64,000 nucleotides of DNA from assembly GCF_029227855.1 (NCBI RefSeq), contig NZ_CP074356.1. The stretch is one strand, 5' to 3'. The stretch comes from Escherichia coli (GTDB taxonomy: Bacteria > Pseudomonadota > Gammaproteobacteria > Enterobacterales > Enterobacteriaceae). Position 1 is the first letter of the stretch, and every line of letters starts with the position of its first letter. The position numbers were made by a program, and so were the translations under genes. Of this stretch, positions 59,437 to 64,000 are shown piece by piece. The notes under the pieces are model-generated. The model was not told the DNA's origin, did no database searches, and saw nothing but the letters and a program-made list of their open reading frames with translations.

Positions 59437-60768
59437 ATGGCAACCACCCGCAACAAGGTGATGTGGCAGGAAGGGATGCTGATGCGCCCACACCATTTCC
59501 AGCAACAGCAGCGTTACAACGACTACCTGGATAACCAGCGTTTCCGGGCCATGAATGATTTATCCTGGGGATTTACCGAACTCACCCTCAACAATGAACT
59601 GCTGGCGCAGGGTAAGATCATGATTGACAGCGCGTCAGGCACACTGCCCGACGGCACCGTCTTTTCTATCCCCGACCAGGACGCACTGCCCGATCCGCTG
59701 CACCCGCAACATTTTCCGGACGAAAGAAGCCGCAATATTTACCTCGCTCTGCCGGTCGCCAGTGATGTGAGAAATGAAATCAGCGACGGGCGGCGAATCG
59801 GGCGTTACCGGCTGAATTATGCCGATGTCCGGGATCTGCATTCAGAAGAAGGTGACGCGCGAACACTGACGCTGGGTCAACTGACGCCGCGCATTATGAG
59901 CGGTGCAGAAGATATGAGCGCCTATATTACGCTCCCGCTTTGCCGTATCAGCGATCGCCATGCCGACGGCTCCCTGACGCTGGATGACGATTTTATCCCC
60001 TCCTGCCAGAATATTCAGGTCAGTAAGAAACTGCGTGTTTATCTCAAAGAGGTACAGGGGGCCATTGGCGGACGGGCAAGCGATCTGGCAAACCGCATTG
60101 GCTCTCCGGCGCAGAGCGGCATCGCGGATGTGGCGGAATTTATGATGTTGCAGTTACTTAACCGTAACCAGACCCGGTTTACCCATCGCGCTCGTCGATC
60201 CCAGCTCCACCCGGAAGATTTCTACCTTGATCTTGCCGGGTTGCTGGGTGAACTGATGACCTTTACCGAGCCGTCGCGCCTGCCCTGCCCGCTTGATGTG
60301 TATGATCATCATGACCTGACCAAAACATTTAAAACGCTGTTACCGGAAGTCAAACGGGCGCTGCATACCGTACTGTCGCCAAGAGCCGTTAATCTGCCGC
60401 TGCATCTGCGTGACGGTATCTGGCAGGCCGATATCCATGACACAGAACTGCTGCAATCTGCCACCTTTGTGCTGGCCGTGGCGGCAAACATGCCGGTCGA
60501 TCAGATCCAGCGCCAGTTTATCCAGCAGTCGAAAATTTCCTCGCCGGAAAAAATCCGCAATATGGTCAGTGTGCAGATACCCGGCATTCCATTGCGTGCC
60601 CTGATGGTGGCTCCCCGCCAGCTTCCTTACCATTCCGGGTTCAGCTATTTCGAACTCGACAAGAGCGGCCAGGCCTGGACAGAAATGGCTGCCGCCGGGG
60701 CCGTTGCACTGCATGTATCCGGCAGTTTCCCGGATCTGAACATGCAACTGTGGGCGATAAGAGGGTAA
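59437..60768 (+). CDS. tssK: T6SS baseplate protein TssK
   Basis: ORF track, 443 aa. Confidence 0.85.
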   Translation: MATTRNKVMWQEGMLMRPHHFQQQQRYNDYLDNQRFRAMNDLSWGFTELTLNNELLAQGKIMIDSASGTLPDGTVFSIPDQDALPDPLHPQHFPDERSRNIYLALPVASDVRNEISDGRRIGRYRLNYADVRDLHSEEGDARTLTLGQLTPRIMSGAEDMSAYITLPLCRISDRHADGSLTLDDDFIPSCQNIQVSKKLRVYLKEVQGAIGGRASDLANRIGSPAQSGIADVAEFMMLQLLNRNQTRFTHRARRSQLHPEDFYLDLAGLLGELMTFTEPSRLPCPLDVYDHHDLTKTFKTLLPEVKRALHTVLSPRAVNLPLHLRDGIWQADIHDTELLQSATFVLAVAANMPVDQIQRQFIQQSKISSPEKIRNMVSVQIPGIPLRALMVAPRQLPYHSGFSYFELDKSGQAWTEMAAAGAVALHVSGSFPDLNMQLWAIRG

Positions 60769-60772
60769 GACG

Positions 60773-61534
60773 ATGGATGAGGGGTCACTGTCTCTGCCAC
60801 CATTTACCGGACACCACGAAAAAAGCCAGCGCGACTATCATCTCGCGCTTCGTGGCAACAGCCTGAATCCGATGATCGACGCAGCCACGCCGCTCCTCGG
60901 TATGGTGATGCGCCTTTCAACCATGAACAGTCAGACGATGCCGGAGCATCTTTTTGCTCAGGTGGTGACAGATGTTCAGGCCGTGGAGCAACTGCTTCAG
61001 GAGCAGGGCTACGAACCGGGCGTGATTATCTCGTTTCGCTACATCCTCTGCACGTTTATTGATGAAGCGGCGCTCGGTAACGGCTGGTCGAACAAGAACG
61101 AGTGGATCAAGCAGTCATTGCTGGTCCATTTCCACAACGAAGCCTGGGGTGGAGAGAAAGTTTTCATCCTGCTGGAGCGCCTGATCCGTGAACCCAAACG
61201 TTACCAGGATCTGCTGGAATTTCTCTGGATCTGTTTTTCTCTGGGATTTCGCGGGCGCTACAAAGTGGCAGCACAGGATCAGGGGGAATTTGAGCAGATC
61301 TACCGCCGTCTGTACCACGTTCTGCATAAACTGCGCGGCGATGCCCCTTTCCCGCTGTTACACCAGGACAAAAAAACCCAGGGCGGGCGTTATCAGCTCA
61401 TCAGTCGCCTGACTGTTAAACATATTTTTTGTGGTGGCGTTGTCGTGCTGGCGTTGTTTTACCTGTTCTATCTGTTGCGGCTGGACAGCCAGACGCAGGA
61501 CATCCTGCACCAGCTAAACAAATTACTTCGATAA
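60773..61534 (+). CDS. tssL: T6SS membrane complex protein TssL (DotU-like)
   Basis: ORF track, 253 aa; C-terminal TM anchor. Confidence 0.8.
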   Translation: MDEGSLSLPPFTGHHEKSQRDYHLALRGNSLNPMIDAATPLLGMVMRLSTMNSQTMPEHLFAQVVTDVQAVEQLLQEQGYEPGVIISFRYILCTFIDEAALGNGWSNKNEWIKQSLLVHFHNEAWGGEKVFILLERLIREPKRYQDLLEFLWICFSLGFRGRYKVAAQDQGEFEQIYRRLYHVLHKLRGDAPFPLLHQDKKTQGGRYQLISRLTVKHIFCGGVVVLALFYLFYLLRLDSQTQDILHQLNKLLR

Positions 61535-61542
61535 GGACGTTT

Positions 61543-64000
61543 ATGATCCAGATTGATCTTCCCACGCTGGTAAAACGGCTGAACCTGTTCTCCCGCCAGG
61601 CGCTGGAGATGGCCGCCTCTGAATGTATGAGTCAGCAGGCAGCGGAAATTACCGTCAGCCATGTGCTTATTCAGATGCTCGCCATGCCACGCAGCGACCT
61701 GCGGGTTATTACCCGCCAGGGCGATATTGGCATGGAAGAGTTGCGCCAGGCGCTGACGGTGGAGAACTACACAACTGCCCGTTCTGCGGACAGCTACCCG
61801 GCATTTTCCCCGATGCTGGTTGAGTGGCTGAAAGAGGGCTGGCTGCTGGCGTCGGCTGAGATGCAGCACAGCGAATTGCGTGGCGGCGTGTTGCTGCTGG
61901 CCCTGCTGCATTCGCCGCTGCGTTATATACCGCCTGCTGCCGCCCGGTTGTTGACCGGCATTAACCGTGACCGTCTGCAACAGGACTTTGTACAGTGGAC
62001 ACAGGAGTCGGCGGAATCAGTCGTGCCGGATGCAGACGGTAAAGTCGCAGGCACACTGACGGACGCTGCTGACACCCTGCTTGCCCGCTACGCCAAAAAC
62101 ATGACCGCAGACGCCCGTAACGGCAGGCTTGACCCGGTACTGTGCCGCGACCACGAAATCGACCTGATGATCGACATTCTCTGCCGCCGCCGCAAGAACA
62201 ACCCGGTGGTGGTGGGCGAAGCAGGCGTGGGTAAAAGTGCCTTAATCGAAGGGCTGGCGCTGCGCATCGTGGCAGGCCAGGTGCCGGACAAACTGAAAAA
62301 CACCGATATCATGACCCTTGACCTAGGCGCATTGCAGGCCGGGGCGTCGGTGAAGGGCGAATTCGAAAAACGCTTCAAGGGGCTGATGGCGGAGGTCATT
62401 TCCTCTCCGGTGCCGGTCATTCTGTTTATTGACGAAGCACATACCCTGATTGGCGCGGGCAACCAGCAGGGCGGGCTGGATATCTCCAACCTGCTCAAAC
62501 CGGCGCTGGCGCGCGGCGAACTGAAAACCATCGCCGCCACCACCTGGAGCGAATACAAAAAATACTTCGAGAAAGATGCCGCCCTGTCGCGCCGCTTCCA
62601 GCTGGTGAAGGTCAGCGAACCCAACGCCGCCGAAGCCACCATTATTCTGCGTGGTCTGTCGGCGGTCTATGAACAGTCTCACGGCGTGCTGATTGATGAT
62701 GACGCCTTGCAGGCCGCAGCAACGCTGAGCGAACGTTATCTCTCCGGGCGTCAGTTGCCGGACAAAGCCATTGATGTGCTGGATACCGCCTGCGCCCGCG
62801 TCGCCATTAACCTTTCCTCGCCGCCGAAGCAAATCTCGGCGCTGACCACTCTGAGCCACCAGCAGGAGGCGGAAATTCGCCAGCTTGAGCGCGAGCTTCG
62901 CATCGGGCTGCGTACCAACACCTCACGGATGACCGAGGTGCTGGTGCAGTACGATGAAACGCTGACGGCGCTGGATGAACTGGAAGCGGCCTGGCATCAG
63001 CAGCAGGCGCTGGTCCGGGAGATTATCGCGCTGCGCCAGCAGTTGCTGGGCGTGGCAGAAGACGATGCGGCGTCGTTGCCGGACGCAGATGCCGCGGAGG
63101 ATACGCCGCCAGAGTCAGAGTCAGAGTCAGAGTCAGAGTCAGAGTCAGAGTCAGAACAGGATAATACCGGTGCCGTACCGGCTGATGAGGCCGACAGAGA
63201 ACAGCCGGAAGAGACCGCTGAAACAGTTTCCCCGGTACAGCGGCTGGCCCAGCTCACTGCCGAACTGGACGCCCTGCATAACGACCGGTTGCTGGTCTCC
63301 CCGCACGTCGATAAAAAACAGATTGCGGCGGTGATTGCCGAATGGACCGGCGTGCCGCTCAACCGCCTGTCGCAGAATGAAATGTCGGTCATCACCGACC
63401 TGCCGAAATTGCTGGGCGACACCATCAAAGGCCAAGACCTGGCGATTGCCAGCCTGCATAAGCATCTACTGACCGCACGCGCCGACCTGCGTCTTCCGGG
63501 ACGCCCGCTCGGTGCGTTCCTGCTGGCTGGCCCCAGCGGTGTGGGTAAAACCGAAACCGTCCTGCAACTGGCAGAGCTGCTCTACGGCGGTCGCCAGTAC
63601 CTGACCACCATCAATATGTCCGAATTCCAGGAGAAACACACCGTCTCGCGGCTGATTGGTTCGCCTCCGGGCTACGTTGGCTACGGTGAAGGCGGCGTAC
63701 TGACCGAAGCGATTCGCCAGAAACCCTACTCGGTAGTACTGCTCGATGAAGTGGAAAAAGCGCACCCGGATGTGCTCAACCTGTTCTACCAGTCGTTCGA
63801 TAAGGGCGAAATGGCAGACGGTGAAGGCCGCCTGATTGACTGCAAAAATATCGTCTTCTTCCTGACGTCCAACCTCGGCTACCAGGTAATAGTCGAGCAC
63901 GCCGATGACCCGGAAACCATGCAGGAAGAACTGTATCCGGTGCTGGCCGACTTCTTCAAACCTGCCCTGCTGGCGCGTATGGAAGTGGTGCCGTATCTGC
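61543..64000 (+). CDS. clpV: T6SS AAA+ ATPase ClpV (TssH), 5' part; gene runs off the window end
   Basis: ATG at 61543 after AAGGA; hand translation begins MIQIDLPTLVKRLNLFSRQALEMAA...; Walker A motifs GEAGVGKSA (~62215) and GPSGVGKTE (~63530); not in the ORF track because no stop lies in the window. Confidence 0.85.
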   Translation, partial: MIQIDLPTLVKRLNLFSRQALEMAASECMSQQAAEITVSHVLIQMLAMPRSDLRVITRQGDIGMEELRQALTVENYTTARSADSYPAFSPMLVEWLKEGWLLASAEMQHSELRGGVLLLALLHSPLRYIPPAAARLLTGINRDRLQQDFVQWTQESAESVVPDADGKVAGTLTDAADTLLARYAKNMTADARNGRLDPVLCRDHEIDLMIDILCRRRKNNPVVVGEAGVGKSALIEGLALRIVAGQVPDKLKNTDIMTLDLGALQAGASVKGEFEKRFKGLMAEVISSPVPVILFIDEAHTLIGAGNQQGGLDISNLLKPALARGELKTIAATTWSEYKKYFEKDAALSRRFQLVKVSEPNAAEATIILRGLSAVYEQSHGVLIDDDALQAAATLSERYLSGRQLPDKAIDVLDTACARVAINLSSPPKQISALTTLSHQQEAEIRQLERELRIGLRTNTSRMTEVLVQYDETLTALDELEAAWHQQQALVREIIALRQQLLGVAEDDAASLPDADAAEDTPPESESESESESESESEQDNTGAVPADEADREQPEETAETVSPVQRLAQLTAELDALHNDRLLVSPHVDKKQIAAVIAEWTGVPLNRLSQNEMSVITDLPKLLGDTIKGQDLAIASLHKHLLTARADLRLPGRPLGAFLLAGPSGVGKTETVLQLAELLYGGRQYLTTINMSEFQEKHTVSRLIGSPPGYVGYGEGGVLTEAIRQKPYSVVLLDEVEKAHPDVLNLFYQSFDKGEMADGEGRLIDCKNIVFFLTSNLGYQVIVEHADDPETMQEELYPVLADFFKPALLARMEVVPYL
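63112..63153 (+). repeat. in-frame hexanucleotide tandem repeat (GAGTCA)x7 inside clpV, encoding (Glu-Ser)7
   Basis: Seven perfect GAGTCA units, in frame with clpV from 61543. Confidence 0.9.

Follow-up and report, generated by a model that had tools for sequence, protein, structure and literature searches.

The generic 10-locus MLVA of Escherichia coli (GECM-10) was reportedly first described by Lobersli, Haugum & Lindstedt in 2012. The same scheme is used in PMC3407997, PMC3877011 and PMC5217547. The passages of the typing literature that name locus CVN016 report its absence from ST131 and a high variability within ST38 and ST405, with a 'null' (zero-repeat) product of 475 bp, and its repeat number is given there as (PS-478)/6, i.e. 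with an offset of 478 (PMC8143711). Another locus of the scheme, CVN004, is likewise an in-frame, copy-variable repeat in an E. coli protein gene, in this case tolA, where the unit is 15 bp, the repeat is part of a structured, helical domain, and repeat number alters protein function, with experimental effects on stress tolerance (PMC3477136). Slippage-prone perfect short repeats within genes are also the basis of the contingency loci of Neisseria, Haemophilus and Campylobacter, which switch expression via frameshift or promoter spacing. Two further precedents concern the protein discussed here. In ClpB, motif 2 of the M-domain, the second coiled-coil wing before AAA-2, forms a compact hairpin of helices, which docks on AAA-1, binds DnaK (Hsp70) and regulates ATPase activity, acting as a switch (PMC5319980). 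[quoted passage not shown]

The array considered here occupies positions 63112-63153 (+ strand) of a 64-kb stretch of E. coli DNA (hereafter the window). Its seven exact GAGTCA units form by far the strongest tandem repeat of the window: TRF placed it at 63110-63155 (period 6, 7.7 copies, 100% matches) with a score of 92, compared with 47 for the second-best repeat, and the chance expectation over the window, given that 36 bases must match beyond the first unit, is about 1e-17. As the original prediction had stated, and as sequence, TRF output and translation all confirm, the array is perfect, lies in frame within clpV (read GAG-TCA in a long ORF, translated PPESESESESESESESEQDN), and encodes (Glu-Ser)7, which corresponds to aa 524-537.

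The ORF starts at 61543 and continues past the end of the window (61543-64000, + strand, the first 819 codons); a complete protein with seven repeat units would measure 931 aa. By its sequence relationships, it is TssH/ClpV, the sheath-recycling AAA+ ATPase of T6SS. Solved structures of ClpV N-domains (3zri, 4hh5, 4uqw) were hit with its N-terminal region, Pfam recognizes AAA, AAA_lid_9 and AAA_2 domains, and ClpB is matched at E=9e-147. The window protein is identical to the L002 protein except in repeat number, and the 3' part of the window sequence matches an intact tssH gene. The TssH/ClpV model TIGR03345 scored 1120 bits with a full-length 13-unit orthologue and 1123 bits with a 39-unit allele (cut-off 884.95), while the ClpB and ClpA models stayed below their own cut-offs. 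The expected architecture is complete, with an N-domain of the Clp type, a coiled-coil M-domain and both AAA+ modules, and membership of the family suggests that the protein would disassemble contracted TssBC sheaths.

The genetic context is that of the T6SS-2 (aspV-island) cluster of E. coli, to which this tssH belongs. Upstream lie two further T6SS core genes, tssK (59437-60768, + strand, a 443-aa ORF) and tssL/icmH (60773-61534, + strand, a 253-aa ORF), the order and lengths of which equal those of the annotated tssK and icmH in NZ_CP042899.1. In a genome with identical sequence flanking the array, the order is tssB-tssC-tssE-tssF-tssG-tagH-tssJ-tssK-tssL-tssH-vasI-tssA-tssM, so that tssH sits between tssL/icmH and vasI, and the cluster adjoins the aspV tRNA gene. 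The idea that the Ser residues of the tract might be subject to phosphoregulation was dropped: an FHA protein (TagH) is encoded, but the annotated neighbourhood contains no kinase or phosphatase gene. It was also observed that, where GAGTCA arrays are long, the tssH name is lost in RefSeq annotation and the gene product is called 'AAA family ATPase'.

The array is very probably the locus known as CVN016, from which nothing sets it apart at the DNA level. One published MLVA primer, CGCCGCCGAAGCAAATCTC, has an exact site at 62819-62837 (+ strand; no mismatches, none expected by chance) and its partner, GCAATCACCGCCGCAATCTGTT, an exact site at 63317-63338 (- strand; no mismatches); both sequences appear in the primer tables of PMC8143711 and PMC8261245. 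From 62819 to 63338 the predicted amplicon measures 520 bp, or 478 plus 7x6 (42), so primer pair, 6-bp unit and 478-bp offset are all shared. The occurrence of the array also agrees with what is said of CVN016 in the relevant parts of the typing literature, where it is described as hypervariable among ST38/ST405-type strains and as lacking, or failing to amplify, in roughly half of E. coli: the repeat locus was present in 2737 of 5426 genomes, and the same array spans 0 to 39 units in complete E. coli genomes. The array is thus an already used typing marker, the variability of which was already known.

There is a complication of naming, in that the primer tables of the same two papers label the matching pair 'CVN017'. 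This apparently reflects shifted labels. The pair labelled 'CVN016' there has no site in the 64-kb window; its sites lie on either side of a CRISPR with two repeats in the serW-clpA interval (279 bp, with repeats 60 bp apart), its forward primer having four mismatches in the O157 genome tested. A location near serX was ruled out for this pair, and the serW-clpA CRISPR fits as a candidate for CCR001.

Around the locus names, the typing papers make no mention of the position of the marker in ClpV or of any consequence for the protein. Literature searches combining clpV with tandem repeat, VNTR or GAGTCA gave nothing on the tract except the O157:H7 paper, and a paper on mutation rates of O157 VNTRs carried no locus or ORF information. 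Mentions of a 'tandem repeat' in the O157:H7 T6SS paper refer to a 28-bp insertion in tssM.

The original prediction had supposed that copy number might differ between strains or clonal lineages, and had proposed a comparison of strains; this comparison, made on E. coli genomes, revealed wide variation. Among 20 alleles counted directly there were 0, 1, 2, 3, 4, 6, 7, 8, 9, 10, 11, 13, 15, 16, 23, 24 and 39 units. For 60 genomes with 99.7-100% identity over the 301-bp flanks, match lengths corresponded to 7 to 39 units. Variation extends into young clones: O157:H7 strains alone span 3-6 units, and genomes sharing identical flanks carried 7-23. In an even sample taken down the ranking of 2730 genomes, 1-2 units predominated and the tail of the distribution reached 18. 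A genome named 'ST38' has 15 units, and in the B2 strains UTI89 and NC101 the left flank of the locus has diverged. The arrays are nearly pure; the sole variant unit seen was a single GAATCA, which the 24-unit and the 39-unit allele both contain.

Short-read assembly can collapse repeats, and an array of seven units was absent from the first 43 genomes with identical flanks, so it might be asked whether the seven-unit array is an assembly product, or indeed a chance low-complexity acidic stretch. However, exactly this allele, with 100% identical flanks, is present in five complete genomes (H204-H208), chance is set aside by the expectation given above, and the locus is, according to the typing schemes where they deal with it, routinely amplified by PCR. 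The likelihood of an artefact therefore seems vanishingly small, and the copy-number variation is real but ordinary.

A perfect short-unit tandem repeat within a gene of a virulence-associated system also brings to mind on/off phase variation, in which slippage would switch clpV expression by frameshift. Since the unit is 6 bp, though, a change by whole units keeps the frame, and the array, its unit being a multiple of three, alters only the length of the tract. Consistently, the reading frame was open across the repeat in every allele translated, including the (ES)39 allele, which forms a complete 995-aa ORF. Two damaged genes were encountered, an internal-stop pseudogene in TUM18530 and a truncated gene in ETEC4067, but in both the lesion is unrelated to the repeat. 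We give almost no credence to switching of this kind, and rejected the array as a phase-variable contingency locus.

How should the 12-bp change described in O157:H7 be viewed against this background? It affects the same gene and the same Ser-Glu residues, and amounts to a change in length of two units. It was read as a single evolutionary mutation and grouped with the decay of the system (PMC12981562), and by extension the loss of clpV units could form part of a directional degeneration of T6SS-2 in particular pathotypes. Yet O157:H7 genomes carry 3, 4, 5 or 6 units and the O55:H7 genome TB182A carries 3, which argues for ordinary VNTR scatter in both directions rather than fixed loss; moreover, frame and all catalytic domains are intact, and PMC12981562 itself states that tssM is more damaged than clpV. 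Directional decay is accordingly a highly improbable account of these differences, and the deletion appears instead as one step of a VNTR with a species-wide range.

The expansion of the repeat is specific to E. coli lineages. In E. albertii, orthologues from about 100 clusters all contain ESE just once and are uniformly 919 aa long, so the array expanded within E. coli. Two findings might have marked the tract as an unremarkable low-complexity linker, namely identical copy number in all related genomes and non-repetitive linkers in orthologues; the first is contradicted by the E. coli alleles, but the second does describe E. albertii.

Where in the protein is this variation accommodated? An AlphaFold2 model of TssH was obtained with an alignment from a 50%-cluster search (a search for close homologues served for comparing the linker but was too shallow for a model, since all its hits came from E. 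coli and E. albertii at 90% identity or more). Mean pLDDT was 90.7, and the sole long internal low-confidence segment was aa 511-555 (pLDDT below 50, about 40). The model has M-domain coiled-coil helices 1 and 2 at aa 429-453 and 460-510 (62827-63072, + strand), then a region without secondary structure at aa 511-563 (63073-63231, + strand), which includes the repeat, and then the last M-domain helix at aa 564-579 (63232-63279, + strand), leading into AAA-2. The repeat loop is thus preceded by the long helix of the M-domain and followed by its last one. Alignment with ClpB gave a similar picture: the M-domain helices align with the ClpB M-domain region as far as residue 470 of Thermus thermophilus ClpB, the alignment ending at aa 501 and restarting at query residue 568 (ClpB 497).

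On this model, the tract forms part of a predicted disordered loop with which motif 2, the second wing of a ClpB-type M-domain coiled coil (itself inserted in AAA-1), ends at its far tip, and would be distant from the ATPase cores. The fold position is that of motif 2 in ClpB/Hsp104, but the turn of the compact hairpin appears to be replaced in ClpV by a disordered acidic loop. ClpV is not known to work with DnaK. The original prediction had spoken of an acidic linker between the two AAA+ modules; the region is indeed acidic (28% Asp+Glu) and lies between the modules in primary sequence, but as a loop at the tip of the M-domain it is not a simple linker. It is also a poorly conserved part of the protein. 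Across 118 ClpV homologues the corresponding region ranges from 29 to 99 aa (median 47), and within E. coli it is 70-89% identical, compared with 93-99% for its flanks. With 7 units the loop is about 53 aa long, and in the 39-unit allele about 117 aa.

Might the length of the tract matter to the working of ClpV? The tract is in the wing that in ClpB acts as a switch, tolA provides an E. coli precedent for an effect of in-frame repeat number, and very long tracts, of 29-39 units, are retained where the T6SS cluster is intact. It could be imagined that (Glu-Ser)n length adjusts ClpV activity, either through docking of the motif-2 wing on AAA-1 or as a long acidic tail affecting sheath binding or hexamer behaviour, and that slippage thereby gives lineages heritable, reversible differences in the rate of T6SS-2 recycling. 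Against this, disorder is predicted for the loop, which is poorly conserved and length-variable across the whole family; no particular length is favoured, alleles from 0 up to 39 units occurring with the frame open; in the sister species the repeat is not expanded; and functional data on the clpV tract, or any phenotype for it, are absent from the literature searched, although oxidative-stress and host-cell phenotypes are reported for a clpV deletion mutant. The tolA repeat differs in having a 15-bp unit in a structured domain. Length tuning therefore strikes us as unlikely. Similarly doubtful is its stronger form, in which tract length would act on the regulatory M-domain wing as a dial, heritable and quickly reversible, with the very long ST38/ST405-type tracts kept by selection and not drift; if true, the rate of sheath recycling would depend on whether a clonal lineage has 1, 7 or 39 units, and with it the frequency of T6SS-2 firing or host interaction.

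Very probably, then, the array is a hypermutable, always in-frame, slippage-driven and largely neutral VNTR in tssH/clpV, identical with CVN016. Replication strand slippage on the perfect GAGTCA array would gain or lose whole units (it is the outcome that is seen, not the slippage). As one unit is two codons, the reading frame would never be lost, and only the length of (Glu-Ser)n would change. The predicted location of the tract, in a disordered, acidic and poorly conserved tip loop remote from the ATPase cores, may explain why such changes are tolerated, allowing copy number to drift. Neutrality is likewise suggested by this disorder and weak conservation, together with the tolerance of 0-39 units. 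Lineages with only 1-2 units look stable, and fast variation may set in when the array exceeds a few units, which would account both for the wide spread in some lineages (7-39 units) and for the usefulness of the locus in typing.

The practical value of the locus is already being exploited in the separation of closely related E. coli isolates by MLVA; what can now be added is the protein context of the marker, a (Glu-Ser)0-39 tract in a loop of the M-domain of ClpV that is predicted to be disordered. For comparative genomics there is some reason for caution, both because whole-unit indels here represent VNTR scatter and not the directional decay read into the 12-bp change of O157:H7, and because automated surveys may, where the gene name is lost at long arrays, take T6SS clusters to be without ClpV. 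Were the regulation of ClpV affected by tract length, the E. coli alleles would provide a simple natural allelic series for the study of M-domain function.

Direct reading of 62800–63500 gives seven exact GAGTCA units at 63112–63153, and Tandem Repeats Finder reports the same array at 63110–63155 (period 6, 7.7 copies, 100% matches, score 92; the runner-up in the 64-kb window scores 47). Its chance expectation over the window, with the 36 bases beyond the first unit required to match, is about 1e-17. Translation puts the array in frame within a long ORF that begins with an ATG at 61543 and is open past the window end: read as GAG-TCA it gives ...DTPPESESESESESESESEQDNTG..., with (Glu-Ser)7 at aa 524–537. 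The array is a real feature, and the original observation of seven exact in-frame hexanucleotide units coding for (Glu-Ser)7 is confirmed.

The 819 tssH (clpV) codons in the window include Pfam AAA, AAA_lid_9 and AAA_2 domains; the product aligns with solved ClpB structures (E ~1e-147) and, in its N-terminal region, with solved ClpV N-domain structures. The TssH equivalog model, TIGR03345 (cut-off 885), gives 1120 bits for a full-length orthologue. The locus (RefSeq gene name tssH) is present in 2737 of 5426 complete E. coli genomes, and the source DNA is E. coli. ORFs for tssK and tssL lie directly upstream of tssH in the window; an identical-flank genome has the order tssB, tssC, tssE, tssF, tssG, tagH, tssJ, tssK, tssL, tssH, vasI, tssA, tssM, with a tRNA-Asp gene adjoining the cluster. 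The literature calls the cluster containing the O157:H7 tssH orthologue T6SS-2. The 3' tail of the window is that of an intact tssH and differs from a truncated version in one seven-unit strain, ETEC4067 (NZ_CP122685.1, stretch L020; one of five genomes with the seven-unit allele). There, a deletion runs from about tssH codon 809 through vasI, tssA and tssM into a VasL-domain gene; the window agrees with the intact gene to its final base, past the equivalent of that junction (~63969).

HMMER alignments to ClpB break off at aa 501 and restart at aa 568. In a confident AlphaFold2 model of a 931-aa, seven-unit TssH (mean pLDDT 90.7, pTM 0.79), for which 118 diverse ClpV homologues were aligned, aa 511–555 form the only long low-confidence internal segment (pLDDT ~40, no secondary structure), bounded by a 51-residue helix (460–510), which helix 429–453 precedes, and by a short helix (564–579) running into AAA-2. 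In the ClpB-type M-domain the coiled coil has two wings, known as motif 1 and motif 2 (PMC5319980); as modelled, the TssH helices and the repeat-bearing segment are such an M-domain, with (Glu-Ser)n in the predicted tip loop of the second wing. In the primary sequence the original description of an acidic linker joining the two AAA+ modules holds; in structural terms it is imprecise. Three more findings show weak constraint on the loop: 28% of its residues are Asp or Glu, the corresponding region is 29–99 aa long (median 47, and often low-complexity too) in the 118 homologues, and its identity within E. coli, computed without the ES run, is 70–89% vs 93–99% for flanks of 167 and 173 residues. 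With the tract lying in a loop shown to be poorly conserved and length-variable, and predicted to be disordered, changes in its length are probably near-neutral for ClpV function. The main rival idea, that (Glu-Ser)n length tunes ClpV, finds precedent in the regulation of ATPase activity by the homologous wing of ClpB (PMC5319980) and in tolA, where in-frame repeat number matters (PMC3477136); on balance we think it improbable.

The M-domain coding region at 62956–62987 is 100% identical to a 32-nt spacer in a type I-E CRISPR array of E. coli MS 21-1 (NZ_CP146670.1), between ygcE and queE (1501–1534 of the extracted stretch L021), with the identity extending one base further. As we read it, the PAM-side triplet in the tssH target would be GCC, the canonical one being AAG. 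A 1.1-kb tssH query had no match in MS 21-1 besides this spacer.

Direct counts in 20 extracted alleles gave 0, 1, 2, 3, 4, 6, 7, 8, 9, 10, 11, 13, 15, 16, 23, 24 and 39 units, the zero-unit allele having EAE in place of ESE. Since BLAST match lengths predicted these counts correctly, they were used to derive apparent copy numbers in larger samples. Among the 60 best genomes, whose 301-bp flanks are 99.7–100% identical, five had 7 units, 44 had 13–23 and 11 had 29–39; an even sample along the ranking of 2730 genomes had mostly 1–2 units, with a tail up to 18; O157:H7 genomes had 3, 4, 5 or 6, and one O55:H7 genome, TB182A, had 3. Copy number thus varies as predicted, both among strains (0–39 units over complete genomes) and within clonal lineages (3–6 in O157:H7, 7–39 among near-identical-flank genomes). 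An assembly artefact is excluded by the identical seven-unit allele in five complete genomes, and phase variation by the 6-bp unit length. A 'strain DH5alpha' genome (NZ_CP026085.1, L013) has a T6SS-2 tssH with nine units; as K-12 derivatives are not known to carry the T6SS-2 cluster, the record is probably mislabelled.

Every allele translated is open across the repeat, and the 39-unit allele has an intact 995-aa ORF in a cluster that is also intact. The TUM18530 record (NZ_AP023190.1, L016; one unit) lists tssH as a pseudogene carrying an internal stop, which, the frame being open across the repeat region, must lie elsewhere in the gene. The arrays are almost pure: the sole variant unit seen, one GAATCA in the 24- and 39-unit alleles, is placed differently in the two relative to the array ends, which means that gain or loss of units has occurred to both its left and its right. 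Such changes probably arise by replication slippage, the frame being kept as whole 6-bp units are added or removed. Long arrays probably mutate faster than short ones, as bacterial VNTRs generally do; stable lineages with 1–2 units vs the spread of 7–39 among near-identical flanks are consistent with such length-dependent mutability. Each of about 100 E. albertii protein clusters (92–93% identity to the query) has only one ESE and is 919 aa long; the expansion therefore arose inside E. coli, starting from a proto-repeat of one unit.

The array is already known. Generic E. coli MLVA primers given in PMC8143711 and PMC8261245 include CGCCGCCGAAGCAAATCTC (62819–62837, plus strand) and GCAATCACCGCCGCAATCTGTT (63317–63338, minus strand), both matching the window exactly; their amplicon is 520 bp, or 478 + 7 × 6. 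The formula for locus CVN016 in PMC8143711 is (product size − 478)/6, and another group reports a CVN016 product of 475 bp that it scored as zero repeats. In published accounts CVN016 is missing from ST131, varies greatly in ST38 and ST405, and ranks with the most diverse loci. That the array is a locus of the ten-locus GECM-10 scheme is beyond doubt, and from the offset, the zero-repeat product and the ST pattern we name it CVN016, with small residual doubt. In keeping with that name, the array has 15 units in one genome named 'ST38', and in the B2 strains UTI89 and NC101 its left flank has diverged. In both primer tables the array-flanking pair is labelled 'CVN017'. The pair labelled 'CVN016' brackets a 279-bp serW–clpA stretch with two CRISPR repeats 60 bp apart, and its forward primer has four mismatches to the O157 genome tested; in O157:H7 PV15-279 the two repeats in this intergenic region contain CTGCCTGTACGGCAGTGAAC (1340–1419 of the extracted stretch L023). 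Because this region fits CCR001, the CRISPR locus of the scheme, and the common allele 2 of that locus, we think that the labels are shifted in both tables.

A 2026 paper places a 12-bp clpV deletion (Ser531–Glu534) in O157:H7 EDL933, relative to O55:H7 CB9615, among signs of T6SS degeneration (PMC12981562). The deletion is a two-unit change in the GAGTCA array, and because O157:H7 spans 3–6 units and one O55:H7 genome has 3, we read it as VNTR scatter, not directional loss. According to the same paper, the T6SS island of O157:H7 has another in-frame change in hexanucleotide units, with six GGTGAA (Gly-Glu) copies inserted in the EDL933 immunity gene Z0269; Tandem Repeats Finder found no GGTGAA array in the 64-kb window.

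Among near-identical-flank genomes, alleles of 7 or 13 units bear the RefSeq name tssH, whereas those with at least 14 are called 'AAA family ATPase'; other allele backgrounds change name at about 16–17 units. The TIGR03345 alignment of the 39-unit allele falls into two stretches (total 1123, still above the cut-off), and such splitting in long-array alleles probably explains the lost name. The VNTR, in a tolerant loop of ClpV, is already established in typing as CVN016; to this the present analysis adds protein-level placement, the 0–39 range in complete genomes, a corrected published interpretation and this annotation side effect, through which T6SS clusters could appear ClpV-less in automated surveys.
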